This document shows, one piece after another, positions 11,832-62,343 of a DNA stretch of 64,000 nt. This DNA is from Candidatus Ghiorseimicrobium undicola (GTDB lineage: Bacteria > Omnitrophota > Gorgyraeia > Ghiorseimicrobiales > Ghiorseimicrobiaceae), in contig PCWA01000035.1 in NCBI GenBank assembly GCA_002796125.1, forward strand, positions 457 through 64,456, written 5' to 3'. The notes under the pieces are model-generated. The model ran no database searches. It was not told the origin of the DNA and worked only from the letters and a program-made list of their open reading frames with translations. Both the position numbers and the translations under genes were made by a program. How positions within the stretch are numbered: the stretch's first letter is position 1; the number at the start of each line of letters is the position of its first letter.

Positions 11832-13356
11832 TTCTGATATTATGCAAAAATCAACCGTATATCTAACAGGTGCCGGGCCCGGGGATGCAAAGTTAATTAC
11901 CGTAAAGGCGCTTGAGCTTATCAAGCGCGCCGATTGCGTTATCTACGATTATCTGGCAAATCCGGATTTACTTAAATTTGCCGGTGAGAAATGTAAAGTA
12001 ATTTATGTCGGTAAAAAAGGTAGTGCGCATACCCTGCCGCAGGCGAAGATTAACCGGCTTTTAGTTAGCTCCGCCAAAAAATATAAAACCGTTGTGCGGT
12101 TAAAGGGCGGAGACCCGTTTATTTTCGGCCGGGGAGCGGAAGAGGCGGTTTTCCTGAAGAAGCATAAAATAAATTTTGAAATTGTCCCCGGAGTTACCAG
12201 CGCGATCGCGGTCCCTGCCTATGCCGGTATTCCTTTGACCGCGCGCGCGCATAATTCCAGTGTTGGATTTATCACCGGCCACGAAGACCCCGGCAAAGAA
12301 AAATCAAATATTGACTGGCAGGCATTGGCTAGGGGGTTGGGTACCTTGGTATTTTTAATGGGGGTGGGCAATTTAGCCTCAATTACGAAAAAATTAATTA
12401 CTGCCGGAAAAGATAAGAGTACGCCTGTGGCGGTAATCCGCTGGGGAACAACTACAGAGCAGAAAACAATAGTCGGTAATTTAGGAAATATCGCCGGGCT
12501 GGTTAAGAAAAATAAAATAAAACCTCCGGCGATAACCGTAGTGGGTGAGGTGGTAGGTTTGCGTAAAGAATTAAGCTGGTTTGAAAAAAAGCCGCTTCTC
12601 GGCAAGAGGGTGGTTGTTACGCGCGCCCGGCATCAGGCAAGCATCTTATCTGAAAAACTCGGTGAGTTGGGAGCTGATGTCGTAGAATCGCCGGCAATAA
12701 ATATCGTATCTTTAAAAGCGGATGGAGCCGTAGAAAAGGCTTTGCTTGGCGAAAAATATGATTGGGTATTTTTTACCAGCCAAAACGGCGTATATGAATT
12801 CGCGGAAATTTTGGATAGAATAAAAAAAGATACTAGATTATTGAGCCAGGTGAAGATTTGCGCCATAGGCTCTGAAACCGCTAAAAGCCTGAATAAAATA
12901 GGCATAAAGCCGGATTATGTGCCAAACCGTTTTTACGCCGAAGAAATAATAAAACATTTTGAATCAGCTAGATTTCGCAATCTTCGCGCTTTAATTTTAA
13001 GGGCTAAAAAAGCGCGCGATGTCCTACCGCAAGGATTACGTGATGCCGGGATGCTGGTTAAGATAATAGATCTTTATGATACATGTATTGATGAAGAAGC
13101 AAAATCATTAGTAAAGAAGGCGTTTGGCGAAAAAGTAGATTGGGTTACTTTTACCAGCTCATCTACGGTTGAGAATTTTATTAAACTCTTAGGTAATGAT
13201 TACCGGAAAAAACTAATTAAGGTAAAATTGGCATCTATCGGCCCGATTACATCGCAGGCGCTTCGCAGGTTCGGCTTAAAGCCGCATGCTGAGGCAAAGG
13301 TTTATACGATTGATGGGCTAATAGAAGCAATAGTAAAATCAAGGGGTAAGGGTTAA
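11818..13356 (+). CDS. Bifunctional uroporphyrinogen-III C-methyltransferase / uroporphyrinogen-III synthase (CobA-HemD fusion).
   Basis: N-terminal SUMT motifs (VYLTGAGPGDAKLITVKALELIKRADCVIYDYL, VVRLKGGDPFIFGRG). C-terminal ~250 aa match the HemD fold. Confidence 0.85.
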   Translation: MKLFNSDIMQKSTVYLTGAGPGDAKLITVKALELIKRADCVIYDYLANPDLLKFAGEKCKVIYVGKKGSAHTLPQAKINRLLVSSAKKYKTVVRLKGGDPFIFGRGAEEAVFLKKHKINFEIVPGVTSAIAVPAYAGIPLTARAHNSSVGFITGHEDPGKEKSNIDWQALARGLGTLVFLMGVGNLASITKKLITAGKDKSTPVAVIRWGTTTEQKTIVGNLGNIAGLVKKNKIKPPAITVVGEVVGLRKELSWFEKKPLLGKRVVVTRARHQASILSEKLGELGADVVESPAINIVSLKADGAVEKALLGEKYDWVFFTSQNGVYEFAEILDRIKKDTRLLSQVKICAIGSETAKSLNKIGIKPDYVPNRFYAEEIIKHFESARFRNLRALILRAKKARDVLPQGLRDAGMLVKIIDLYDTCIDEEAKSLVKKAFGEKVDWVTFTSSSTVENFIKLLGNDYRKKLIKVKLASIGPITSQALRRFGLKPHAEAKVYTIDGLIEAIVKSRGKG

Positions 13357-13411
13357 GTGATAAGGGTTAAGTAACTTAACCCATAACCCTTAATCCGTAA
13401 CCCTATTTTTT
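13345..13411 (+). repeat. Heptamer-repeat inverted structure (gggttaa / ttaaccc units) overlapping the cobA-hemD stop, followed by a T-run. Possible terminator/attenuator.
   Basis: taagggttaagtgataagggttaagtaacttaacccataacccttaatccgtaaccc then tatttttt. The ahbC start follows immediately. Confidence 0.4.
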
Positions 13412-14570
13412 GATGATTAACTGCACACGTTTACTTTGCGGGAAATTAGGCGTTCAGGACGAAATCCGCTATAAAAAGGGGAAACCGGCGGATACAAACC
13501 GTCCTATTGTGGTCTGGAACTCTACCCGCCGCTGCAATCTTAAATGCATCCATTGCTATATTGACGCAAAGCGCACTCAGGACGCAGGCGAGCTTACCAC
13601 AGAACAGGCAAGGGTATTAATTGATGACTTGGCACAGTTTGGCGCGCCGGTTTTTTTATTTTCCGGAGGCGAGCCTTTTATCCGCGAGGATTTGTTTGAG
13701 CTTGGCAAATACGCTAAGGATAAAGGCCTGCGTACGGTAATTTCAACTAACGGTACGTTGATTACCGACGATATGGCAAAAAAGGTGAGAGATGCCGGTT
13801 TTTCTTATGTGGGCATAAGTTTAGACGGGCTTGAGGCGACGAATGACAAATTCCGGGAGCAAAAAGGCGCCTTTAAAAAGACGCTGGAAGGTATTAGAAA
13901 TTGCCTGAAAAATAATGTGCGCGTGGGCCTGCGTTTTACGATTAATAAACATAATTTTATGGACTTATCCGGCATATTTGATTTAATAGAAAATGAGGGT
14001 ATTCCGCGCGCCTGTTTTTATCACTTGGTTTATTCCGGCCGCGGCAGTTCTATGATAGAGGAAGATTTAGCGCATCCCCAAGCGCGCGCGGCGGTGGATT
14101 TAATTTTTGAGCGTTCAAAACAGCTCTGCGCTAAAGGTAAAGATGTTGAGATATTGACTGTAGATAATCATACCGATGGGGTTTATTTGTATTTGAAGCT
14201 AAGGAAAGAGGATCCGAAACGCGCGGTAGAGGTGCTTGAGCTTTTAAAGATTAACGGCGGCAATAAGACCGGTATCGGCATTGCCGATATAGATAATTTA
14301 GGCGATGTTCATCCCGACCAGTTCTGGCGGGGCTATACTTTAGGTAATGTAAAGGAGCGTAAGTTTAGCGAGATTTGGATGGATGAGAGCAATGAGCTCT
14401 TGAAGAATCTGCGTAACCGCCTGCCGCTTTTAAAAGGCAAGTGCGGCATTTGTCATTTTCAGGATATCTGCGCCGGAAACTTCCGCGCCCGCGCTGAGGC
14501 ATTCTATAACGATACTTGGCAGGAAGACCCTGCGTGTTATTTGACCGAAGATGAGGTGTTGAGTAGGTAG
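13410..14570 (+). CDS. ahbC: Radical SAM / SPASM enzyme of the alternative heme pathway (AhbC/AhbD family; tentatively AhbC, Fe-coproporphyrin III synthase).
   Basis: CNLKCIHCY radical SAM cluster motif near the N-terminus and a C-terminal Cys-rich SPASM-like region (CGICHFQDICAGNFRARA). It sits in an operon with ahbA/B. The C-versus-D assignment rests on size only. Confidence 0.5.
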   Translation: MMINCTRLLCGKLGVQDEIRYKKGKPADTNRPIVVWNSTRRCNLKCIHCYIDAKRTQDAGELTTEQARVLIDDLAQFGAPVFLFSGGEPFIREDLFELGKYAKDKGLRTVISTNGTLITDDMAKKVRDAGFSYVGISLDGLEATNDKFREQKGAFKKTLEGIRNCLKNNVRVGLRFTINKHNFMDLSGIFDLIENEGIPRACFYHLVYSGRGSSMIEEDLAHPQARAAVDLIFERSKQLCAKGKDVEILTVDNHTDGVYLYLKLRKEDPKRAVEVLELLKINGGNKTGIGIADIDNLGDVHPDQFWRGYTLGNVKERKFSEIWMDESNELLKNLRNRLPLLKGKCGICHFQDICAGNFRARAEAFYNDTWQEDPACYLTEDEVLSR

Positions 14571-14689
14571 GGTTTTATATACATTATGGCACTTTTCACT
14601 CTGGTTGCAATTTTTTACGTCAGCTTCTCGGTATTTTAAGGCGCCTGCGGAACTCGTTCTTCGGCGCTATCGCGCCAGGAATGAACTCA

Positions 14690-14879
14690 GACAGTCCTCA
14701 GATTAGGAAATCGGGGGACACAATACTAATTTAATGGCATCTCCCGTAAGGAAAAAGATTAGAAACTACTAATTCTAATAACCGGACAGTCCTCAGATTA
14801 GGAAATCGGGGGACACAATACTAATTTAATGGCATCTCCCGTAAGGAAAAAGATTAGAAACTACTAATTCTAATAACCG
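14690..14879. repeat. Perfect tandem duplication: 2 x 95 bp (14690-14784 and 14785-14879) in the ahbC-hemB intergenic region.
   Basis: The two copies are identical base for base. Each contains a small stem (CGGGGGA...TCTCCCG) and no ORF. Confidence 0.9.
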
Positions 14880-14921
14880 CGTAGGTTGATAAAGTCAGAA
14901 AATGCGGCTTAAAGAAATAAT

Positions 14922-15956
14922 ATGACTTTTCCAAAAATTAGAATGAGAGATAGGCGTAAGGATGAGGCAACGCGCAAGAGGTTTCGCCAAACGCCGGAGG
15001 TCTCGGCGCGGGATTTGATTATGCCTCTTTTTGTCAAAGAGGGTATAGGTAAGAAGAAAGAAATTAAGTCAATGCCCGGCATTTATCAATTTTCGCTAAA
15101 CGACGTAGTCGCGGAGGCAAAGAGCGTTTATAAATTAGGCATTGGCGCAATAATCCTTTTCGGCATCCCCAAGTATAAAGACGAAATTGGTTCTTTCGCT
15201 TATGATGACAACGGCATAACCCAAGAGGTAATCCGGCTGATAAAGAAGGCCGTGCCGAAATTGACGGTCATTGCCGATGTGTGCATGTGTGAATATACCT
15301 CACACGGCCACTGCGGGGTTTTAAAAAGACCCAATACCCAATACTCAATACGCAATACATTTACGATTGATAATGATAAGACAACCGAGATATTAGCCAA
15401 GATTGCGCTATCGTATGCTATAGCCGGGGTGGATATAGCCGCGCCGAGTGCGATGATGGATGGCCAGGTTAGGGCGATAAAAGAAGCATTGCTTAAAAAT
15501 AAATTTCCAAAAGTTAAAATAATGAGTTATTCATCAAAATACGCCTCAAGTTTTTATGGGCCATTTCGCGATGCCGCGGAATCGCCTCCGCGGTTTGGCG
15601 ACCGCAAGACATACCAAATGGATTATTATAATAGCGATGAGGCGGTAATTGAGGCAAAATTAGATATTGCCGAAGGTGCTGATATGGTAATGGTTAAGCC
15701 GGCTTTGGGTTATCAGGATATTATTTATCGCTTAAAGAAAGAGCTAAAATTTCCACTTGCCTGTTATAACGTAAGCGGTGAATACGCGATGATTAAAGCA
15801 GCCGCGCAGCGTGGATTACTCGATGAGAAAAAAGTTGTCTTAGAGATGCTTACCGGTTTTAAGCGCGCCGGTGCCGATAAAATCATAACGTATTACGCGA
15901 AATCCGCCGCCTATTGGCTTAAAAACCATGTAGACCTACGCGGTCTACATGGTTAG
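14922..15956 (+). CDS. hemB: Porphobilinogen synthase (delta-aminolevulinate dehydratase) carrying an in-frame heptamer-repeat insertion.
   Basis: Motifs VCMCEYTSHGHCGVL, active-site Lys region and C-terminal YYAKSAAYW. The inserted NTQYSIRNT is encoded by cccaata cccaata ctcaata cgcaata at 15330-15357. Confidence 0.9.
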   Translation: MTFPKIRMRDRRKDEATRKRFRQTPEVSARDLIMPLFVKEGIGKKKEIKSMPGIYQFSLNDVVAEAKSVYKLGIGAIILFGIPKYKDEIGSFAYDDNGITQEVIRLIKKAVPKLTVIADVCMCEYTSHGHCGVLKRPNTQYSIRNTFTIDNDKTTEILAKIALSYAIAGVDIAAPSAMMDGQVRAIKEALLKNKFPKVKIMSYSSKYASSFYGPFRDAAESPPRFGDRKTYQMDYYNSDEAVIEAKLDIAEGADMVMVKPALGYQDIIYRLKKELKFPLACYNVSGEYAMIKAAAQRGLLDEKKVVLEMLTGFKRAGADKIITYYAKSAAYWLKNHVDLRGLHG

Positions 15957-17015
15957 GTGGTTGAAAATATGGATAAACAAAATGCGAATTTGAGGATGGT
16001 GGCTTGGGAGGTTACGCGCAGCTGTAACTTATCCTGTGCGCATTGCCGCGCATCCAGTAAACACGGCCCGTATCCGGGCGAGCTTTCCAAAGAAGAATGC
16101 TTTAAGGTCTTAGATGAGATTGTCTCTTTTGCCAAGCCGGTAATTATACTTACAGGCGGTGAGCCGTTATTACGGGAAGATATTTTTGAGATTGCCGCCT
16201 ACGGAAAAAAATGCGGCTTGGTCATGGTAATGGCGCCCAACGGCCTGCTTTTAACAGATGAAAATATCAAAAAAATAATCGCCTCAGGAATTAAGCGCAT
16301 ATCAGTAAGCTTAGACGGGCCTAACGCAAAAATACACGATAACCTAAGGCAGGTGCCCGGTGCATTTGATGGAGCGATTGCAGGGATAAAGCGGGCAAAA
16401 AAATTAGGTCTTGAGTTTCAGATAAATTCTACGATCACCAAAAGAAATATCCAGTATTTGCCAGAGATGATGAAGTTGGCCAAGGATCTGGGGGCGGCAG
16501 CGCATCACATATTTTTGCTTGTGCCGACAGGCCGCGGAAAAGATATGGAAAAAGAAGAGCTCTCGCCTCTCGAATATGAAGAAACACTTAAATTTTTAGA
16601 AAAGGAAAAAAATAATTTCCCTTTGCAGATAAAAGTTACCTGCGCACCGCATTATAATAGAATACTTGCGCAGAATAATCCGCAAACGGCCGGTTCTTTG
16701 CGCGGCAGGGGTTGTATGGGAGGTGTGAGTTTTTGTTTTATCTCACATGTGGGAGAGCTTTCGCCCTGCGGTTATTTAGAATTAAAATGCGGCAATGTCA
16801 GGAAAGAGGGTTTTAAAAAGGCATGGCTTGAGTCGGAAGTATTTAATAATTTACGGGACTTTTCCAGGTTTAAAGGTAAATGCGGCGTATGTGAATTCCG
16901 CTACGTCTGCGCGGGGTGCCGGGCGAGGGCGTACGCAAAATGCGGCGATTATTTGTCGGATGAACCGTATTGTATTTACCAGCCTGCGGTTGCTAAAGAA
17001 CAGAGCGAAACATGA
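15957..17015 (+). CDS. ahbD: Radical SAM / SPASM enzyme of the alternative heme pathway (AhbC/AhbD family; tentatively AhbD, heme synthase).
   Basis: CNLSCAHC radical SAM motif plus a C-terminal auxiliary Cys cluster (CGVCEFRYVCAGC). It lies directly upstream of ahbA/ahbB. Confidence 0.5.
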   Translation: MVENMDKQNANLRMVAWEVTRSCNLSCAHCRASSKHGPYPGELSKEECFKVLDEIVSFAKPVIILTGGEPLLREDIFEIAAYGKKCGLVMVMAPNGLLLTDENIKKIIASGIKRISVSLDGPNAKIHDNLRQVPGAFDGAIAGIKRAKKLGLEFQINSTITKRNIQYLPEMMKLAKDLGAAAHHIFLLVPTGRGKDMEKEELSPLEYEETLKFLEKEKNNFPLQIKVTCAPHYNRILAQNNPQTAGSLRGRGCMGGVSFCFISHVGELSPCGYLELKCGNVRKEGFKKAWLESEVFNNLRDFSRFKGKCGVCEFRYVCAGCRARAYAKCGDYLSDEPYCIYQPAVAKEQSET

Positions 17016-17470
17016 ATAGGGCATTAACAGCTTTGGATAAGAGAATATTGAACAGATTACAGCAGGATATTCCTTTTACGGCCGAGCCCTGGAAAAAAAT
17101 CGCCGGAGAATTGAACATTCAAGAAGCGCGTTTATTAAATCGTATTGCAATTTTGAAGAAACGCGGTATAATCCGGAGAATAGCCGCGGTTTTTAATCCA
17201 AGGAAGGTCGGTTTTGTTTCTACGCTGGCGGCGGCAAAAGTAGCGCCTGAGAATATTGAGGCGGCAGCCAGGGCCGTAAATAAGTATCCGGAAGTTACCC
17301 ATAATTACAAACGGCAGGAGGAATATAACCTTTGGTTTGCCTTGGTCGCCCCAAGCAGGAAAAAAATTACGCTTATAATTAACCGGCTAAAAAAGAACAA
17401 AAAATTTAAAAAAGTTATAGAATTGCCGGCAGTCAGACTCTTTAAGATAGACGTTAGCCTGAAAGTATGA
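17012..17470 (+). CDS. ahbA: Siroheme decarboxylase subunit (AsnC/Lrp-like, NirD/L/G/H family).
   Basis: LDKRILNRLQQDIPFTAEPWKKIAGELNIQEARLLNRIAILKKRGIIRRI is typical of AhbA/AhbB. Confidence 0.75.
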   Translation: MNRALTALDKRILNRLQQDIPFTAEPWKKIAGELNIQEARLLNRIAILKKRGIIRRIAAVFNPRKVGFVSTLAAAKVAPENIEAAARAVNKYPEVTHNYKRQEEYNLWFALVAPSRKKITLIINRLKKNKKFKKVIELPAVRLFKIDVSLKV

Positions 17471-17471
17471 T

Positions 17472-17936
17472 ATGCTCTCGCCGCTGGATAAAAAAATAAT
17501 CAGCCTGGTTTCTAAGGATATGCTTTTGAGCAGTCGGCCATTTAAGGTAATGGCCGGTAAAGCCGGCATCAGCGAAGATAAGCTTTTGGCGCGCCTGAAA
17601 TCCTATAAAAAAAGCGGGATGATGCGCAAGTTTTCCGCCGTCCTGCACCATATAAACGCCGGGTTTAAGCACAACGCGATGTGCGTCTGGAATGTGCCGG
17701 AAAAATCAGCCCTGAATGCCGGAAGGATAATCGCCGCCTTTGACTATGTCAGCCATTGTTATCAGCGGAAGAGGCGCGCTGATTGGAAATATAACCTATA
17801 CGCGATGGTGCACGGAAAGACCAGGGCGGAATGTATTAAGGCCGCAAAAAAAATATCCGGGAAAATCGGTTTTCCCGATTGCAAAATCTTATTTTCATCA
17901 AAAGAGTATAAAAAGACCGGGGTGAAGTACGGCTAA
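17472..17936 (+). CDS. ahbB: Siroheme decarboxylase second subunit (AsnC/Lrp-like).
   Basis: Paralogue of the preceding gene (LDKKIISLVSKDMLLSSRPFKVMAGKAGISEDKLLARLKSYKKSGMMRKF). Confidence 0.7.
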   Translation: MLSPLDKKIISLVSKDMLLSSRPFKVMAGKAGISEDKLLARLKSYKKSGMMRKFSAVLHHINAGFKHNAMCVWNVPEKSALNAGRIIAAFDYVSHCYQRKRRADWKYNLYAMVHGKTRAECIKAAKKISGKIGFPDCKILFSSKEYKKTGVKYG

Positions 17937-26508: not shown

Positions 26509-27678
26509 GTGGAGCTTCAAAAAAATTTAATGAAAATTATACATACCGGAATTATTTTGACGTCATCAATTTTTTTATTCTCTATAGCCGATTTGTCTTT
26601 TGCCGGAGTCGCCGGATCCCGGCACGACATGTATTTTTTGAGCAAAGGAACCGACCCTAATCCCTGCGCATACTGCCACATACCGCATAATGCCGCGGGT
26701 GATAAAATCTGGTCTGACTGGGCAAATGAGGCTCAACTCACCAGCGGCCCGTCAACGACCATTGGTAATATGTGCTATACCTGCCATGACGGGACTGCCA
26801 GCTATCGCGGCTTAAATAGCGTATTTAATCTTTCTCTGCAGCAGCATAAAATATCTGCCGGCCGGGATTGCGATATGTGCCACAGTGTGCATGATAACAC
26901 TAACGGGCAATTTATGAATATAGCGGGTAAGCAGAATTCTTATTGTGCCGCCTGTCATGATGCTGCGGTTAATGCCGGAGGGTTAGGCGACCATGTAAGC
27001 TATCCCGCGAATCATCCAAATTGCGGAGGGTGCCATGGAGTATTTGAACTGGATTCATTAGGGGCAAACGGCGATGATGCCAGCTGCCACCTTTGTCATG
27101 CTAAAGCTCACGGCGCGGTAAATTATACGGCAGGATCGATAACTAATCCTATATTAAAATCCAATAATACGGATAGCCAGTATTGCGGGCTTTGCCATCC
27201 GGATTTGGTCCAGGCGAATTCAGGCGGCAGCAAGCATCCGGCCAATACATCAGGCAGTGCTTATGGTAAGATAACATGCCAGTCATGCCATGACCCGCAT
27301 CAGCCCGGGATAACAAACCAGCTGTATCTATTGACGGACAGCAATATAGACTCGCAGATGTGTATTGATTGTCATAACGGTTCCAGCGGCCCGGACATCG
27401 GGCATTCTCATCCTAATCAAGTTAGTTTTGGCACTATTGTTCCTGTAGATGCTTCGCCGCAGACAGGTACCCCTCCGGGTAATCAAATAAATGATAATGA
27501 TTATGATGATGGACATTCGGATCCGGATACTTACCCTGATTATCCCGCTAATTCCGCCAGCATGATATGCGAAACCTGTCATAGCGTGCATCGCAAAGCG
27601 GATAATGCCGGAATAAAACTTTTAAGAATAACCAATACTAATTCGGCATTGTGCTTAAACTGCCACACGGACAAGTAA
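26509..27678 (+). CDS. Multiheme cytochrome c, paralogue 2 (11 CxxCH).
   Basis: Same N-terminal block (SRHDMYFLSKGTDPNPCAYCHIPH...) and shared C-terminus LLRITNTNSALCLNCHTDK. Confidence 0.8.
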   Translation: MELQKNLMKIIHTGIILTSSIFLFSIADLSFAGVAGSRHDMYFLSKGTDPNPCAYCHIPHNAAGDKIWSDWANEAQLTSGPSTTIGNMCYTCHDGTASYRGLNSVFNLSLQQHKISAGRDCDMCHSVHDNTNGQFMNIAGKQNSYCAACHDAAVNAGGLGDHVSYPANHPNCGGCHGVFELDSLGANGDDASCHLCHAKAHGAVNYTAGSITNPILKSNNTDSQYCGLCHPDLVQANSGGSKHPANTSGSAYGKITCQSCHDPHQPGITNQLYLLTDSNIDSQMCIDCHNGSSGPDIGHSHPNQVSFGTIVPVDASPQTGTPPGNQINDNDYDDGHSDPDTYPDYPANSASMICETCHSVHRKADNAGIKLLRITNTNSALCLNCHTDK

Positions 27679-27735
27679 GTATAGAGTATTGGGTATTGAG
27701 TATAGAGTATCGAGTACGAGAATTAAAAATTAAAA
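27676..27735. repeat. 7-bp-periodic tandem repeats (gagtat-type, then attaaaa/gaatcaa-type) filling the spacer between cytochrome paralogues 2 and 3.
   Basis: gtaagta tagagta ttgggta ttgagta tagagta tcgagta cgag aattaaa aattaaa aATGaag aatcaag aatcaaa. Confidence 0.8.
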
Positions 27736-28914
27736 ATGAAGAATCAAGAATCAAAAACTGCAGGTTATTTGAAAATTCCCTTAGCCATTAGTTTAATAGT
27801 TCTGGCTTATAATTTAAGTTTCGCCGGGGTGTCCGGGACAGTCCATGACATGTATTCTTTAGGTAAGGGAACAGACCCGAACCCCTGCGGCTATTGCCAT
27901 ATGCCGCATAAGGCCGCAGGAGAGAAAATCTGGTCCGACTGGGGCAATGAGACGCAATTAACCAGCGGTCCATCAACCGCCATAGGTAATATGTGCTATA
28001 CCTGCCATGATGGGACAGTGACTAATGTGGGTTTATCGACAGCGTTTAACGCTTCCCGGCAGCAGCATAAAATACCTGCCGGGCAGGATTGCGATATGTG
28101 CCATAGCGTGCATGATAATACGAACGGAAAGTTTATGAATGTTGTAAAGAAACAGCAAACATATTGCGCCGCCTGCCATGATGCAATAGTTAATGCTGGG
28201 GGGCTTGGCGATATGACTTCAGCTGGAAATCATCCCAGTTATTGGGCGTCTACGCCCGCTCATAATATAAATGGTTCACCCACCGGCGCATTCTGTACGG
28301 CTTGTCATGAACGCGTGCATTATTCTCAATTTGACTGCAGGGGATGTAATTTTTGCCATAAAGCACATGACGGGACTAATTATTCAACCGCGCAAGTGCC
28401 TAATCCGATTTTAAAAGCCGACAATACTGATAGTCAGTATTGTGCCTCATGCCATCCATATAAGATTCAGGCATCAAGCGGTGGTGATAAACATCCGGCA
28501 AACCTTGCGGCAGCTGGCAACTGGGGAAAGGTTATTTGCCATGATTGCCACGATCCGCACCAGCCCGGTGTTACGAACCATCCTTTTATATTAACGGATA
28601 CTAATGTTGATTCGGCAATGTGTATTAATTGCCACGATAATACAGCCGGGCCTGAGATAGGAGTTTCGCATCCGCATCAGATTCCTTTTGGCAGTATAGT
28701 TCCGACTGATGGCTCTGCTGCGGCTGGTACGCCCGCTGCGAATGCAATAGATGATGACGGAGAAGACGGAGTTGATTATCCATTAAATTCAGCTAATCTT
28801 ATTTGTGAGACGTGTCATGGAACACACCGCAGAGTTGATGATGCGGGGACTAAACTACTTAGAATAACCAATACTAATTCGGCATTGTGCCTAAACTGCC
28901 ACACGGATAAATGA
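27736..28914 (+). CDS. Multiheme cytochrome c, paralogue 3 (11 CxxCH).
   Basis: Same family. The last ~80 nt are nearly identical to paralogue 2. The N-terminal MKNQESK is encoded by heptamer repeats. Confidence 0.8.
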   Translation: MKNQESKTAGYLKIPLAISLIVLAYNLSFAGVSGTVHDMYSLGKGTDPNPCGYCHMPHKAAGEKIWSDWGNETQLTSGPSTAIGNMCYTCHDGTVTNVGLSTAFNASRQQHKIPAGQDCDMCHSVHDNTNGKFMNVVKKQQTYCAACHDAIVNAGGLGDMTSAGNHPSYWASTPAHNINGSPTGAFCTACHERVHYSQFDCRGCNFCHKAHDGTNYSTAQVPNPILKADNTDSQYCASCHPYKIQASSGGDKHPANLAAAGNWGKVICHDCHDPHQPGVTNHPFILTDTNVDSAMCINCHDNTAGPEIGVSHPHQIPFGSIVPTDGSAAAGTPAANAIDDDGEDGVDYPLNSANLICETCHGTHRRVDDAGTKLLRITNTNSALCLNCHTDK

Positions 28915-30086
28915 TGAAATTAAAAATGAAAAATAAAAAATCTAAAACCGTGACTTATTTTAAAATTCCCTTAGCCGTCAGTTTATTTTTTTTGATTTAT
29001 GATTTAAGTTTTGCGGGGGTGTCTGGGACAGTCCATGATATGTACACACAGGGTAAAGGCACTAGCCAGGAGGTATGCGCTTATTGCCATATTCCTCATC
29101 AGGCCAAAGGTGATAAAATCTGGTCTGACTGGGCAAATGAGGCTCAACTCACCAGCGGCCCGTCAACAACCATAGGCAATATGTGCTATACCTGCCACGA
29201 CGGGACAGTGACCAATATAGGCTTATCAACGGTATTTAATGCTTCGCTGCAGCAGCACGTTATGCCTGCCGGCCAGGATTGCGATATGTGCCATTCTGTG
29301 CACGATAATACTAACGGTAAGTTTATGAATGTCGGCTTAACCGAGAACTATTATTGCGCCAGTTGCCATAATGCTGCGGTAAACGCTGGCGGGCTGGGTG
29401 ATTATACGAATTCAGGAAACCATTTTAATTATGGCGTATATGACGGCGCCCATCCCAAAAGGTTTGGCTCCGGCTGTTATAGCTGCCATTATGATCATAT
29501 GCAAAGCATCGTGAGTTTAGGCAGTTGTAAATTCTGCCATGAAGCTCATGCCGGAGCGAATTATTCTACGCCATCGGTATCTAAACCTATCTTGCGTATT
29601 GATAACACCGATAGCGCATTTTGTATATCTTGTCATCCTGCGATGCAGCAGGCGACGACAGGCGGCAATAAGCATCCCGCTAATTTGACTGCCGGAGGAA
29701 ATTGGGGCATAGTGGATTGCCATGACTGCCATGATGTACATCAGCCGAATAATCCTAATAATCCTTTTATATTACGTAACCAAAATACCGATTCCGGATA
29801 CTGCGCATATTGTCACGAGGCGATTAATGAAACCTATGGGCCTAAAATCGGTAATGGGCATCCGGTAAATATTGCTTTCGGAGCCTATCCTCCGATTGAT
29901 GCGTCTTTGACGCCTGCGGGCAATGCTATAGATGATGACGCATATTACGGGATAGATTATCCGGCAAATTCATCCGATATGATATGCGAAACATGCCATT
30001 CGGTGCATCGAAAGGGCGTGGCAAGCCCTCTATTGCGCATGAGCATTACGGATAGCTCGTTATGCCTTAACTGTCATCAGATGTAA
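28911..30086 (+). CDS. Multiheme cytochrome c, paralogue 4 (11 CxxCH).
   Basis: Same family. Its start overlaps the stop of paralogue 3. A 56-nt stretch is identical to paralogue 2 (gataaaatctggtctgactgggcaaatgaggctcaactcaccagcggcccgtcaac). Confidence 0.8.
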   Translation: MMKLKMKNKKSKTVTYFKIPLAVSLFFLIYDLSFAGVSGTVHDMYTQGKGTSQEVCAYCHIPHQAKGDKIWSDWANEAQLTSGPSTTIGNMCYTCHDGTVTNIGLSTVFNASLQQHVMPAGQDCDMCHSVHDNTNGKFMNVGLTENYYCASCHNAAVNAGGLGDYTNSGNHFNYGVYDGAHPKRFGSGCYSCHYDHMQSIVSLGSCKFCHEAHAGANYSTPSVSKPILRIDNTDSAFCISCHPAMQQATTGGNKHPANLTAGGNWGIVDCHDCHDVHQPNNPNNPFILRNQNTDSGYCAYCHEAINETYGPKIGNGHPVNIAFGAYPPIDASLTPAGNAIDDDAYYGIDYPANSSDMICETCHSVHRKGVASPLLRMSITDSSLCLNCHQM

Positions 30087-31572: not shown

Positions 31573-31611
31573 TGTTTAGAATATATAATGCAGAATGTAG
31601 AATGTAAAATT
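31570..31611. repeat. 7-bp-periodic tandem repeat (tagaatg-type) spanning the stop of the 13-heme cytochrome and the start of the beta-barrel gene.
   Basis: taatgtt tagaata tataatg cagaatg tagaatg taaaatt. Confidence 0.8.
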
Positions 31612-34392: not shown

Positions 34393-35250
34393 ATGTATAA
34401 GAACATGAAATGCAAAATATTACTGGTTACGAGTTACTGGCTGCTGGTTACTTTCTTTATTGGCTGCGCGAGCGGGCCATCAAGTTATTGGCGGCCTAAG
34501 CATTTCTCGCGCTCTAAGTACATAAAGGTTGCCATAGTGCCTTTTACAAATCTCAGTAAAGAAAAGGAAGCTGATCAAAGGATAGCCTATTCATTGATAA
34601 CGCATCTTCTCAATACGCATTATTTTAATGTTGTTGAAATGGGGGAAGTGCAAAGGGCTTTGAAGGAAGCCAAGGTGCGCAAGGATGAGGGCCTCTCGGT
34701 AGAGGAAATTAAAAAAATCGGCCGGCTGATTGATGTAGAAGCCTTGCTTATGGGCGCGGTAGAAGAGTATAAGATTGATTCCAGCACTTTACTTGGAGAA
34801 AAAGTATTTGTGCCGGAAGTGTCGATTAACGCGAGGTTAGTCTCTACTGAAGACGCCGAGATAATCTGGGCCGCGAATCACCATCGCAGAGGGGATGACA
34901 GGGTAACTGTGTTTGGGATGGGCAGAATTGACTCTATCAGCGAATTGACAGATGTTATTATAAAGAACATTGTTAATTCTTTGCTTAAAGTGGCAAAAAG
35001 CAAGAGGAGCGCGCTTACCGGGTTAAAACGAAGCGTTATTTTGGAGGATGTCCCAGACGAGGAATTAGAAAATACCGTTTTGGATATTAAGCCTGCCTTA
35101 CGCGAAGATGTCATGGATAAGGCAATGGAAAGCGTAAAAACGGCGTCAAAAGATTCCTCAAGCGCGATAGCGCCTAAAACAGAAGATTCAAAGGCAAAAA
35201 TAAAAAGCGATTACAAAAGAGAGTATGAGCGTGTAAAAAAACAATTTTAA
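34393..35250 (+). CDS. Lipoprotein (lipobox FIGC), unknown function.
   Basis: N-terminal LLVTFFIGCASG signal plus lipobox. Part of the cytochrome/porin cluster. Confidence 0.5.
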   Translation: MYKNMKCKILLVTSYWLLVTFFIGCASGPSSYWRPKHFSRSKYIKVAIVPFTNLSKEKEADQRIAYSLITHLLNTHYFNVVEMGEVQRALKEAKVRKDEGLSVEEIKKIGRLIDVEALLMGAVEEYKIDSSTLLGEKVFVPEVSINARLVSTEDAEIIWAANHHRRGDDRVTVFGMGRIDSISELTDVIIKNIVNSLLKVAKSKRSALTGLKRSVILEDVPDEELENTVLDIKPALREDVMDKAMESVKTASKDSSSAIAPKTEDSKAKIKSDYKREYERVKKQF

Positions 35251-39607: not shown

Positions 39608-40993
39608 ATGAAACACCGTATTCCAAAAGAAAGAATTAAGGATTTTTTTGAAGTAGCGCTTGGCCTTACGGAAGAAGAGGCAGCCGTCGAAGCAAAGCGT
39701 TGTCTTGAATGTAAGAATCCGGTATGCGTTAAAGGCTGCCCCGTTGCGATAGACATACCGGCGTTTATCTCATTGATTAAGGAATCGAAATTCAAGGAAG
39801 CTATTTTAAAGCTGAAAGAAAAAAATTCTCTGCCGGCAGTTTGCGGAAGGGTCTGTCCTCAGGAAAATCAGTGCGAGGCCGCTTGTATTTTAGGCAAAAA
39901 GAAAGTACCAGTGAATATTGGAGCGCTTGAGAGGTTCGCCGCAGATTGGGAGCTGAAAGAAGGGGCGCGAGTTAAGGATAATGCATCGCCAGCACAATAC
40001 TCAATACACAATACTCAATACACAAAGATTGCTGTAGTAGGCAGCGGGCCGGCGGGCTTGACTGCGGCAGGCGCGCTTGCTAAAATGGGTTATGAAGTTA
40101 CGCTCTTTGAGTCGCTGCATTTAGCAGGGGGTGTGCTCGTCTATGGCATTCCGGAATTCCGCTTACCTAAAAAAATAGTCCAGGATGAAGTAGAGTATAT
40201 AAAAAGCCTCGGCGTAGAAATAAAAACCAATACGCTTATAGGCAGGACTTTAACAATTAAAGATTTGTTTAAACATGGCTATGGCGCTGTTTTTATCGGT
40301 ACCGGCGCCGGCCTTCCTCAGTTTTTAGGCATACCCGGTGAAAATCTCGCTGGCGTTTATTCTGCCAATGAATTTTTGACGCGTGTTAATCTTATGAAAG
40401 CCTATAAATTTCCCGAATATGCCACGCCGGTAAATATCGGCGCTCATGTTGCGGTGATAGGCGCGGGTAATGTTGCTTTTGATTGCGCGCGATGCGCTAT
40501 ACGCCTTGGAAGCCAAGTGGTGCTTGTTTACCGCCGCGGCGAAAAAGAAATGCCGGCGCGGGCCGAAGAAATTGCTAACGCCAAAGAGGAAGGGCTGGTT
40601 TTAAATTTGCTTACCCAGCCGCTTGAGATTTTAGATGACGGTAATGGCGGTGTTTCAGGGCTTGAATGTATAAAGATGCGCCTGGGTGAGCCGGATGCCT
40701 CAGGCCGTGCCAAGCCTATCGCGATAGACGGCTCGAATTTTATATTAAAGGTTGATACGGTAATAGTAGCTGTTGGGCAAAGCCCCAATCCTTTATTAAC
40801 CGGGGCGACACCCGGTCTAAAGATAACTTCTAAGGGTACGATTTACGTTGATGAGCATTTTCAGACATCAATCCCCGGTGTTTTTGCCGGCGGAGATATA
40901 ATTACCGGAGCCGATACCGTGATAGCCGCGATGGGAGCCGGCCAGCGCGCGGCAGAGGAAATAGATAAATATATAAAAATGCAGAATGTATAA
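39608..40993 (+). CDS. NAD(P)H-dependent oxidoreductase of the glutamate synthase small-subunit / SudA family (GltD-like), with an in-frame heptamer-repeat insertion.
   Basis: N-terminal Fe-S Cys motifs (CLECKNPVCVKGCP, CGRVCPQENQCEAAC), FAD/NAD Rossmann motifs (VVGSGPAGL, VIGAGNVAFDCAR) and GGD. The inserted AQYSIHNTQYT is encoded by cacaata ctcaata cacaata ctcaata at 39993-40020. Confidence 0.8.
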   Translation: MKHRIPKERIKDFFEVALGLTEEEAAVEAKRCLECKNPVCVKGCPVAIDIPAFISLIKESKFKEAILKLKEKNSLPAVCGRVCPQENQCEAACILGKKKVPVNIGALERFAADWELKEGARVKDNASPAQYSIHNTQYTKIAVVGSGPAGLTAAGALAKMGYEVTLFESLHLAGGVLVYGIPEFRLPKKIVQDEVEYIKSLGVEIKTNTLIGRTLTIKDLFKHGYGAVFIGTGAGLPQFLGIPGENLAGVYSANEFLTRVNLMKAYKFPEYATPVNIGAHVAVIGAGNVAFDCARCAIRLGSQVVLVYRRGEKEMPARAEEIANAKEEGLVLNLLTQPLEILDDGNGGVSGLECIKMRLGEPDASGRAKPIAIDGSNFILKVDTVIVAVGQSPNPLLTGATPGLKITSKGTIYVDEHFQTSIPGVFAGGDIITGADTVIAAMGAGQRAAEEIDKYIKMQNV

Positions 40994-41047
40994 TGTAGAA
41001 TGCAGAATTGAATTTTATATTTTACATTTTAAATTTTACATTCTTGG
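40982..41047. repeat. Heptamer-repeat palindrome (gcagaat units, then their inverted complements tacattt) at the gltD-like stop / panB upstream. Hairpin-forming, a terminator candidate.
   Basis: gcagaat gtataat gtagaat gcagaat tgaattt tatattt tacattt taaattt tacattc. Confidence 0.7.
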
Positions 41048-43731: not shown

Positions 43732-43765
43732 TTTTTTTGTATTTTGTATGGCGCATAGCGTATTG

Positions 43766-43800
43766 CGTAATACTCAATACTCAATACTTAATACTTAAGA
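43766..43800. repeat. 7-bp tandem repeat (ctcaata-type) between glyQS and ppdK.
   Basis: cgtaata ctcaata ctcaata cttaata cttaaga. Same unit as the in-frame repeats in hemB and the gltD-like gene. Confidence 0.8.
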
Positions 43801-48456: not shown

Positions 48457-48978
48457 ATGGATATAGAACAACTAAAAAATTCTATACGCGCCATACCCGA
48501 TTTTCCCAAAAAAGGGATTTTATTCAGGGATATAACCACTTTGCTTTCTGATAAGGAGGCGTTTAAAGCGGCTATTGATATGCTCTATGATTACTATAAA
48601 GATAAAAAAATAGATTGCGTTGTAGGCATAGAATCACGCGGTTTTATTCTTGGTTCCGTGCTCGCGTATAAATTAGGCTGCGGCTTTGTGCCGGTGAGAA
48701 AAAAAAATAAATTGCCTTATAAAACGCACAGCATAACCTACAGCCTGGAATATGGCACTGATACCCTGGAAATCCATGAGGATGCTTTTGCTAAAGGCGC
48801 GCGTATTTTAATCGTAGATGATCTTTTGGCAACCGGCGGGACAGTGGCGGCTGTTTGTGATTTAGTCAAAAAAATATCTTCTGATATCGTGGGAATATGT
48901 TTCTTGATTGAACTTACTGCTTTATCCGGCCGTGATAAGCTTAAAGGCCTGCCAGTTTTTTCATTAATTAAATTCTAA
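48457..48978 (+). CDS. apt: Adenine phosphoribosyltransferase.
   Basis: PRPP-binding motif [13 protein letters not shown] and [13 protein letters not shown], about 173 aa. Confidence 0.9.
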
Positions 48979-48999
48979 TTTTTCATTTTGCATTTTAAT

Positions 49000-49073
49000 G
49001 CGCCTGTAGCTCAGTTGGATAGAGCGTCCGCCTCCTAAGCAGAAGGCCCCCGGTTCGACTCCGGGCAGGCGCA
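49000..49073 (+). tRNA. tRNA-Arg (anticodon CCU).
   Basis: Cloverleaf: acceptor gcgcctg/caggcgc, D-arm gctc...gagc, anticodon loop cuCCUaa with U33/A37, T-arm cccgg-ttcgact-ccggg, discriminator A. One mismatch in the anticodon stem. Confidence 0.8.
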
Positions 49074-49074
49074 T

Positions 49075-49125
49075 AAATACAGAACTAAGAACTAAGAGTT
49101 ACGAGCTAAGAGTAAGTGGTTTTGA
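49075..49125. repeat. 7-bp tandem repeat (taagagn-type) immediately 3' of tRNA-Arg. A related attttnn-type repeat lies 5' of the tRNA at 48966-48999.
   Basis: acagaac taagaac taagagt tacgagc taagagt aagtggt. Confidence 0.7.
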
Positions 49126-62297: not shown

Positions 62298-62343
62298 GCC
62301 CCTTTAAATTCCGGATTCTATATTCTAAATTTTATATTTCCCA

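Follow-up and report, generated by a model that had tools for sequence, protein, structure and literature searches.

What is a seven-nucleotide tandem repeat doing inside the reading frames of two unrelated metabolic genes? The question is raised by a 64,000-nucleotide stretch of DNA from the Omnitrophota bacterium Candidatus Ghiorseimicrobium undicola (contig PCWA01000035.1, positions 457 to 64,456), hereafter called the window. One array lies within hemB, and the other lies within a gene for an NfnB/GltD-like NADPH oxidoreductase. Coordinates are those of the window, and features are on the forward (+) strand unless otherwise stated. We consider it probable that both tracts are tolerated, translated heptanucleotide simple-sequence repeats in permissive loops and that they are local members of a repeat class present across the Omnitrophota. 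A preliminary description of this DNA had proposed that one microsatellite-like element was colonizing the two genes, as tolerated junk, a slippage-prone contingency tract, or a sequencing artifact. The first of these three readings is the one we retain as best.

In-frame arrays in hemB and an NfnB-like gene

The hemB gene (14922-15956) encodes a porphobilinogen synthase of 344 amino acids (Pfam ALAD, E = 2.4e-137), which is a 100% match to an NCBI protein named for Candidatus Omnitrophica bacterium CG11_big_fil_rev_8_21_14_0_20. Within it, in frame, stand the units CCCAATA CCCAATA CTCAATA CGCAATA (15330-15357), reported by Tandem Repeats Finder (TRF) as 4.3 copies of period 7 at 15329-15358. 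The units are imperfect, differing at position 2, and just two neighbors are identical. The translation (GVLKRPNTQYSIRNTFTIDND) reads R-P-N-T-Q-Y-S-I-R-N-T-F, of which the array itself supplies PNTQYSIRNT at residues ∼137 to 146, deep inside the catalytic protein. The loop follows the zinc-binding HGHCG motif, and the insert starts five residues past the last zinc-ligand cysteine motif. Relative to solved porphobilinogen synthases, the loop is longer by 10 residues (E. coli 1i8j and Chlorobium 1w1z), 7 to 9 residues (human), or 6 residues (5lzl). The peptide has no counterpart in these structures, in agreement with the earlier proposal of a lineage-specific insertion. In the AlphaFold2 (AF2) model (mean predicted local distance difference test [pLDDT] score, 83.7), residues ∼135 to 148 have low pLDDT, with 141 to 143 below 50, and the insert is predicted to be almost without secondary structure, with only single-residue strand marks at both ends. 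The array contains a single G, and its predicted minimum free energy (MFE) is 0 kcal/mol, i.e., it is without predicted RNA structure.

The second array, (CACAATA CTCAATA)x2.4, lies at 39993-40025 in an oxidoreductase gene of 461 codons (39608-40993; identified by Pfam). In full, it reads CACAATA CTCAATA CACAATA CTCAATA CACAA, or (CACAATACTCAATA)x2.4, which TRF describes as 4.7 copies of period 7 or, alternatively, as 2.4 perfect copies of a 14-mer. The label "gltD-like" given previously should be replaced, as NfnB is far nearer to the protein (best solved relative, 4ylf_B; E = 3e-165) than are the small chains of glutamate synthase (E about 1e-80). The translation (...ASPAQYSIHNTQYTKIAVVGSGPAG; AQYSIHNTQYT) occupies residues ∼129 to 139 of 461, five residues before GSGPAG, in the interdomain linker between Fer4_20 (residues 9 to 119) and the FAD domain Pyr_redox_2 (residues 140 to 445). 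Because the AF2 model (pLDDT, 67.7) is poor in the N-terminal half, including the Fe-S domain, this linker assignment rests on the Pfam boundaries and on alignment to the solved NfnB. The array contains no G and is likewise unstructured by prediction (MFE, 0 kcal/mol).

Both arrays are thus located, and read in frame, as first described. The array in the NfnB-like gene does precede the FAD Rossmann motif, but an insertion there is less well supported, because the net gain in linker length is +7 relative to Thermotoga maritima NfnB and just +2 relative to Pyrococcus furiosus NfnI. The array occupies an existing variable linker and is better described as a linker replacement than as an insertion. 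As for the suggestion that both tracts lie in surface loops, they do fall outside the conserved cores, judging from Pfam boundaries and from the predicted low-pLDDT loop of HemB.

A common unit accounts for the shared peptide

The two proteins had been said to share the peptide NTQYSI(R/H)NT. This is true of HemB, while the second protein reads QYSIHNTQYT, a cyclic permutation. Because 7 mod 3 = 1, every frame of a heptamer array gives an identical cyclic peptide of seven residues, and a CNCAATA array encodes (L/P/H/R)-N-T-Q-Y-S-I in any frame, which is why NTQYSI is shared by both proteins. The shared peptide is therefore an automatic result of the common DNA unit and neither a coincidence nor a selected motif. 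Read the other way (TATTGAG), the unit includes TGA; thus, only a single orientation can persist in an open reading frame (ORF).

The same unit family had also been noticed in noncoding arrays, which we find at 43768-43798 and, reversed, at 27678-27716. The first is an AATACTC-type array (TRF period 7) and forms part of an intergenic pair (43735-43798; TRF), in which a GTATTKN-type arm is followed by AATACTC AATACTC AATACTT AATACTT (fold z score, -2.45). It stops 1 nt before the GAAGGAGG ribosome-binding site of a pyruvate phosphate dikinase gene. The second, AGTATWG x5.6 (TRF), is the reverse complement of the CTCAATA family and begins at the stop codon of a multiheme cytochrome gene. In this orientation, it holds TGA and TAG and is hence untranslatable; its start at a stop codon is consistent with the stop-bearing orientation being barred from ORFs.

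With at most one mismatch, CAATACNCAATA has 15 matches in the window, 12 of them within the four loci, compared with 1.85 expected, and none of 100 shuffles reached 15. Nothing beyond the 7-nt unit is common to these loci, and no conserved flanks were seen around them. A unit-sharing simulation with matched base composition gave a P value of about 0.05 for pairs and 0.02 for the largest cluster. Since these values are marginal, we make no claim for dispersal of unit families. The initial characterization of lineage-specific, in-frame, microsatellite-like arrays of one unit family stands.

A recurrent unit could also mark a cis-acting element. Under this alternative, a lineage-specific factor or ribosomal protein S1 would recognize the arrays, either as repeated binding sites or as unstructured CA-rich tracts, and would thereby co-regulate hemB, the NfnB-like gene, the dikinase gene, and others; translation in two of the genes would be incidental. 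The CAATAC-type unit at four loci, one of which ends 1 nt before a ribosome-binding site, fits such a role, as does the nearly G-free composition and zero predicted structure of both coding arrays. A regulatory role for heptamers near start codons has been proposed or in part demonstrated in Beggiatoaceae (PMC4679880) and Nostoc (bioRxiv 10.1101/2022.06.06.494920). The unit-sharing statistics are only marginal, however, and no candidate binding factor was identified. Further evidence on this alternative comes from the same sites in related genomes.

Heptamer arrays of unrelated units recur at both sites

We compared the HemB loop, defined as the segment between HGHCG and (V/I)DNDxT, across homologues. 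DNA of relatives was obtained by nine exact-protein look-ups, and among the matches listed from a metagenome scan with the HemB alignment, L084 and L085 were Omnitrophota-like loci. In 119 Omnitrophota-type homologues, the loop has a median length of 13 residues (range, 6 to 44) and reaches at least 12 residues in 66/119; it is at the minimal 6 residues in 26/119. In 90 genes from other phyla, the median is 6 residues, and only 8/90 loops reach at least 12. Long HemB loops from other phyla include heptamer arrays as well (AAGTCAA in L093 and L106; AATCAAR in L126). The NfnB linker before GSGPAG is hypervariable too (120 homologues). Tripeptides are repeated at a lag of 7 in 47/120 NfnB linkers and 15/119 HemB loops, compared with at most 4 at any other lag.

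The units found at these sites differ from genome to genome. At the hemB site, relatives carry AGAAACC (L001 and L171), CAAGCCG (L002), CGGTTAT/CCGGACG (L005), and AGTTCAN/CTATGAA (L083). In the NfnB linker, two-armed units are GTTCATA/CTACGAA (L081), GGGAGTA/CTCCAAA (L172), CCACAGY/CCGTCGA (L173), and CGGTTAT/ACCGAAM (L174), and single units are AGTCACC (L169) and CGTATCC (L170). The NfnB-like proteins of L169 and L170 are 86% identical, yet their linker units are unrelated. The initial picture of two unrelated genes hit by one element does not survive this comparison: both sites hold heptamer arrays of unrelated units in many Omnitrophota.

The nearest relatives at the hemB site, L001 and L171, encode HemB proteins 81 to 83% identical to that of the window, and their arrays have the same position and length. 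This pattern fits in situ concerted change of one inherited array but might also reflect replacement. Homology of the units themselves (ACCCAAT in the window and AAACCAG in L001) was considered and rejected, as 3/7 positions match in phase, which is indistinguishable from chance.

Positions outside the two enzymes recur in a similar manner. The spacer between the NfnB-like gene and panB holds arrays in the window, L081, L169, and L170, with differing units. The site upstream of the dikinase gene holds an array in the window and L170, and the corresponding spacer of L169 is a hairpin of heptamer-like units not called by TRF. Arrays follow a phosphoribosyltransferase gene in the window, L081, L169, L170, and L173, with a readable tRNA gene alongside in all of these except L173. 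The N-terminal region of a CsgG/LpoB-like lipoprotein is occupied by TTACTGG in the window (34420-34452) and by CAAAATC and TTTGTCA in L170 (1894-1976), and the ApbE N terminus contains arrays in L081 (5515-5546) and L173 (5534-5582).

For the cis-element alternative, these comparisons cut both ways. Arrays stand at conserved positions beside start and stop codons in four genomes, and the hemB array of L001 and L171 shows no synonymous change despite 36% third-position divergence in the gene. On the other hand, orthologous sites of related genomes hold wholly different units (e.g., AGTCACC in L169 versus CGTATCC in L170). Such complete turnover sits poorly with the idea of a conserved binding motif, and array-free homologues are many (26/119 HemB loops are minimal). 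We therefore regard a cis-regulatory function as unlikely.

Some further observations concern HemB and other array-bearing sites. Near residue 300, HemB has a second insertion hot spot, bounded by the IKAAA helix and DEKxxVLE (residues 299 to 319 in P0083 and 343 to 352 in P0110), carrying the 7-residue-periodic peptides PKTENRRPKTE and NTEHRTPNTE. In the CsgG/LpoB-like and ApbE lipoproteins, N-terminal regions of the signal peptides, including their hydrophobic cores, are encoded by heptamer arrays whose units vary by genome. After the phosphoribosyltransferase gene of the close relative L170 (19417-19790), long TTTACTT/AAAAGTA-type arrays lie on both sides of the tRNA gene; past the tRNA, a segment of about 60 nt is duplicated, and the whole region folds at -106.7 kcal/mol.

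The hemB array does not differ among five assemblies

Two of the interpretations offered at the outset predict instability or error in the tracts. Five assemblies of different samples (ENA, three JGI metagenomes, and Logan) give the very same hemB DNA, array included, and the HemB 90% identity cluster has a single member sequence. No variation in hemB array length was found across these five assemblies of the same population, nor among the window, L001, and L171. Loop length nevertheless spans the 6-to-44-residue range across the phylum.

If the tracts were contingency loci, gain or loss of 7 nt would switch hemB or the NfnB-like gene on or off. A unit that is not a multiple of 3 suits such a switch, since any one-unit change frameshifts, and the array of the NfnB-like gene is a perfect 14-mer repeated 2.4 times. 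Heptanucleotide phase variation is reported in pathogens, e.g., for Haemophilus influenzae and E. coli neuO (PMC2651432 and PMC13001214). In the window, however, the hemB array lacks perfect repetition, as no more than two neighboring units are identical; all five assemblies agree on the gene; and array length is constant between the window, L001, and L171 despite a DNA divergence of about 20%. The hosts are core metabolic genes, one of them biosynthetic, in a multiheme cytochrome-rich genome and are neither surface associated nor variable. Phase switching of these genes is accordingly very improbable.

An artifact of sequencing or assembly is less credible still and can be regarded as excluded. 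Short tandem repeats are prone to misassembly, and a 95-bp repeat upstream of hemB does vary between assemblies, but the five concordant assemblies, the intact reading frame, and the presence of arrays at both sites in independent genomes all speak against this explanation. The 95-bp repeat is a perfect direct repeat of 2.0 copies (14690-14879) in the 351-nt spacer directly upstream of hemB. It is present in one copy in the ENA assembly (L164) and in two copies in the window and L166, a difference due either to genuine copy-number variation or to a collapse of the assembly. At gathering thresholds, Rfam gave no match to the repeat.

Paired arrays form hairpins in related genomes

Many coding arrays in relatives are two armed, with an array, an A-rich spacer, and a complementary array, as in the NfnB linker of L081 (GTTCATA... 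A6 (CTACGAA)x5). Those of L081, L083, L172, and L174 fold well (z scores of -3.2 to -4.6), and the pair in L173 gives no fold on the sense strand (z score, 0.3). The hemB loop of L085 (1754-1888) contains three nested CCTCTCCCC...GGGGAGAGG palindromes in frame (-86.8 kcal/mol; peptide NPSPLPSGER). A fourth CCTCTCCCC...GGGGAGAGG copy, also in frame, occurs elsewhere in this gene (2029-2065), about 200 nt downstream. The behavior resembles that of repetitive extragenic palindromic (REP) sequences or Rickettsia palindromic elements (RPEs). Palindromic structure at the two sites is thus present in L081, L083, L172, L174, and L085 and absent from the window tracts.

These hairpins raise the possibility that the window tracts are remnants of small, RPE-like palindromic elements that spread in frame, with single arms being decayed hairpin halves. 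In relatives, the two sites indeed hold two-arm hairpins of the intergenic unit family of the same genome; for example, GTTCATR/YTATGAA is found both in the NfnB linker of L081 and at positions 19447-19504 of L081. The additional palindrome in L085 hemB and the second HemB hot spot in P0083 and P0110 would also be expected of a spreading element, and CCAAT/ATTGG-type units in intergenic hairpins of L169 and L170 resemble the CCCAATA unit of the window. In-frame insertion is documented for RPEs (PMC10969869), and the window tracts share with them an in-frame placement compatible with the protein fold. Nevertheless, the window arrays have no partner arm or hairpin potential (MFE, 0), and no conserved flanks, terminal inverted repeats, target-site duplications, or transposase were seen. 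With units of only 7 nt, resemblance from locus to locus says little about common descent. Moreover, the window, L001, and L171 share array length and position, and arrays at one site in sister genomes look like the product of in situ turnover and not of new insertion. Descent from such elements seems to us doubtful.

A related possibility is that the Omnitrophota carry a distinct class of heptamer-periodic palindromic repeats, built of an array, an A-rich spacer, and the complementary array. Selection or dedicated copying, and not tolerance alone, would keep them at fixed positions, some of them in frame (the HemB loop, the NfnB linker, and lipoprotein signal peptides), and the window tracts would be single-arm members of the class. 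Possible roles would be those of mRNA elements modulating translation or decay or of a new self-propagating repeat. We judge this account to be improbable.

Coding hairpins show a consistent strand asymmetry. We examined eight (L081 10355-10432, L083 10405-10486, L172 10356-10425, L173 10356-10430, L174 10378-10446, L002 10394-10472, L005 2036-2112, and L085 1754-1888), and all eight are more stable as the antisense strand (summed, -326 kcal/mol antisense versus -244 kcal/mol sense). The sense strands contain 37 A·C oppositions versus 9 G·U pairs, whereas 12 intergenic array hairpins are balanced, with 20 G·U pairs per strand. These hairpins are few, and their repeat units are not independent of one another. 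Avoidance of stop codons was rejected as a general cause of sense-strand weakness: it explains L081 and L083 (8/9 A·C positions) but not the rest (2/28), and the overall proportion (10/37) equals the background (45/169). Selection against stable mRNA hairpins, or against T-rich readings that would place hydrophobic residues in surface loops, is a possible cause.

Period-7 arrays elsewhere in the window

The two coding tracts are not isolated. TRF reports 17 period-7 rows in the window, and a lag scan found 5 strong period-7 runs, compared with 0.0 in shuffles; the same scan gave no strong runs at periods 4 to 6 or 8 to 12. Across 305 kb of Omnitrophota loci, period 7 also exceeds its neighbors, with 53 TRF rows versus 12, 21, and 17 for periods 6, 8, and 9, respectively. 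Although ORFs make up about 93% of the window, 15/17 arrays are intergenic or at gene ends. Their units are diverse (AAGGGTT/TAACCCT, AGAATGY/ATTTTAC, AATTAAA, TTACTGG, ATTCTAT, and the CTCAATA family). Besides the CTCAATA family, the window thus carries no fewer than a dozen period-7 arrays of other units, mostly at gene boundaries and in some cases encoding signal peptides, a point that the initial description lacked. Long arrays also occur in control loci from other phyla, including GAGGTGA in up to 8 to 9 copies in an Acidobacteriota metagenome-assembled genome (L030 3586-5130 and 17678-17757), AGAACAT-type arrays in Herpetosiphon (L049 6428-6497), and several units in Candidatus Ribeiella (L077 7197-13772); thus, the period-7 bias is not confined to the Omnitrophota.

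Several arrays in the window form inverted pairs. At 13341-13404, AAGGGTT x4.4 is followed by TAACCCT-type x3.9 and a T6 run (TRF and folding); the left arm extends over the final codons and the stop codon of the gene upstream, and the pair forms a terminator-like hairpin. The region 13338-13412 folds at -27.5 kcal/mol (z score, -4.0), with 0/200 shuffles as stable and U6 following. Between the NfnB-like gene and panB, AATGYAG x4.4 and ATTTTAC x4.4 form a pair (40978-41042) whose left arm overlaps the stop codon; the region 40975-41045 folds with a z score of -3.7 and has no clear U-tract. Consensus promoter and terminator scans listed neither hairpin and were uninformative, so direct folding with shuffles was used. 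Judged by their anatomy, such intergenic pairs may act as terminators or RNA-stability elements. At Rfam gathering thresholds, only one tRNA was found in the window, placing the arrays outside curated RNA families.

Other arrays sit at the beginnings of genes. AATTAAA/AATCAAG x5.3 (27721-27757; TRF) spans the start codon of a cytochrome gene and encodes MKNQESK, and an A-rich array (28917-28947; TRF) lies in the first codons of a paralogous cytochrome gene (MMKLKMKNKKSK). These genes belong to three tandem paralogous multiheme cytochrome c genes at 26509-30086 (26509-27678, 27736-28914, and 28911-30086). The first two have near-identical 3' ends (...CLNCHT...), and A-rich heptamer arrays make up the opening codons of the second and the third gene. 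TAGAATG x4.9 (31577-31610; TRF), of the same family as the array at 40978, lies across a start codon (MQNVECK). The lipoprotein array at 34420-34452, TTACTGG x4.7 (TRF), encodes LLVTSYWLLVT, the hydrophobic core of the signal peptide. Short arrays, ATTTTKC (48978-48996) and AGAACTA (49081-49097), stand on either side of a tRNA gene (49000-49073), together spanning 48978-49097. Finally, ATTCTAT x3.4 (62315-62338; no strand assigned), of the reverse-complement family of AGAATGY, is intergenic between two minus-strand genes.

The neighborhoods of the two host genes are as follows. Around hemB (13410-17936) lie radical-SAM/SPASM genes and two NirD/L-like AsnC-type genes, a layout also present in L083, L164, and L171, which we take to be typical of the siroheme-dependent (alternative) heme pathway. 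In L174, the NfnB-like gene has an NfnA-type partner (DHODB_Fe-S_bind) as its direct upstream neighbor, and in L081, L172, and L173, this partner lies upstream at a distance of one to two genes; no such partner was observed among the upstream genes of the window, L169, and L170. A frameshifted mgtE upstream of the NfnB-like gene was considered and rejected, as the three small ORFs there comprise one YbaB-family gene and two without a Pfam match.

Interpretation

The window arrays resemble prokaryotic heptanucleotide long simple-sequence repeats (LSSRs) and the related STRR sequences: they consist of head-to-tail units in at least three copies, show an excess of period 7, and lie mostly outside constrained coding sequence. 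Heptamers are the most abundant LSSR class in most prokaryotic genomes surveyed, and polymerase slippage has been proposed as their source (Mrazek, Guo, and Shah 2007, as summarized in PMC4679880 and PMC4692102). By extension from this published bias, slipped-strand mispairing or template switching during replication would create period-7 arrays and keep them internally similar. The arrays persist where constraint is loose, i.e., in intergenic spacers, first codons, signal peptides, interdomain linkers, and surface loops, as their locations show. Within an ORF, only a stop-free orientation with a total length that is a multiple of 3 can survive, here read as the cyclic peptide (L/P/H/R)NTQYSI. 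The HemB loop after HGHCG and the linker that precedes the FAD Rossmann fold of the NfnB-like protein are permissive sites of this kind, at which repeats have resided and turned over phylum-wide. The encoded peptides would be neutral passengers for the enzymes. On sequence evidence, the flagged tracts are most likely functionally neutral.

Four observations weigh against this interpretation. The exact unit CTCAATA occurs at four separate loci in 64 kb, which simple slippage does not explain. A one-unit slippage event would frameshift hemB, so this process does not readily account for the similarity of units within in-frame arrays. The paired coding arrays of relatives keep hairpin potential, which is not required of neutral loop filler. 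Lastly, the hemB arrays of L001 and L171 are 30/32 identical, and neither of the two differences is synonymous, while the gene is 81.5% identical overall and 64% at third codon positions. This last comparison is a weak hint of nucleotide-level constraint on the array, from a small sample.

These findings extend a bacterial heptanucleotide-repeat phenomenon to an uncultured, small-genome phylum. They show that repeats can stay for long evolutionary periods within the reading frames of core enzymes, giving rise to hypervariable low-complexity loops beside catalytic motifs, signal-peptide cores, and linkers. For annotators, a practical rule follows from the arithmetic of the unit: a heptamer array encodes one cyclic heptapeptide in every frame, and odd peptides shared between proteins need not mean homology or function. 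Hairpin arrays that are conserved in position and variable in sequence, together with the coding strand asymmetry, also offer a tractable system for asking whether such repeats are a replication by-product or have an RNA-level role, a question posed since 2007.

Comparison with known repeat systems

Our literature searches found no published description of heptamer arrays in Omnitrophota. One close known system is that of prokaryotic heptanucleotide LSSRs (including the cyanobacterial STRR and the GGGAATC-type repeats of Xanthomonas and Nostoc). These likewise comprise a few 7-nt copies with a period-7 excess and are mostly intergenic. Some form stem-loops from inverted pairs, as published for Xanthomonas and Nostoc (PMC4692102), and they occur between the same genes in related genomes while varying in length and sequence. 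The arrays described here differ in that some lie in frame within conserved enzymes at phylum-recurrent positions and in comprising many unit families per 64 kb rather than one dominant unit.

In Geobacter metallireducens, 49 elements of four tandem heptanucleotides (GGACCGG) are found within and between genes (PMC2700814). Like the arrays of the window, they consist of about four heptamers, represent one family at many loci, are both intragenic and intergenic, and are of unknown function. The Geobacter unit is GC rich and was proposed to be a regulatory RNA element, with no phylum-wide conservation of host position reported; the units here are AT rich and differ between sister genomes.

TAACTGA direct repeats are known from marine Beggiatoaceae, cyanobacteria, and some Bacteroidetes (PMC4679880). 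Shared features are the placement of two to six copies just upstream of start codons or over stop codons, the restriction of in-ORF copies mostly to protein termini, and a sequence that gives stops in all frames one way and a cyclic heptapeptide the other. That system employs a single unit across phyla, whereas many units are used here, and two of the window arrays are deep inside conserved catalytic proteins.

RPEs and intragenic repeats resembling miniature inverted-repeat transposable elements (PMC10969869) are similar in being inserted in frame in unrelated metabolic genes at fold-compatible positions. Likeness in hairpin potential extends only to the two-arm arrays of relatives and the L085 palindromes. 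RPEs are about 150 bp long with a conserved sequence, whereas the window tracts are 28 to 33 bp of a 7-nt unit, without hairpin potential or signs of transposition.

Taken together, the excess of heptamers and the presence of four-unit arrays inside genes are already known from other bacteria. The aspects that appear new are recurrence across a phylum at fixed in-frame positions of core enzymes, paired-array hairpins within ORFs, and arrays serving as the cores of signal peptides.

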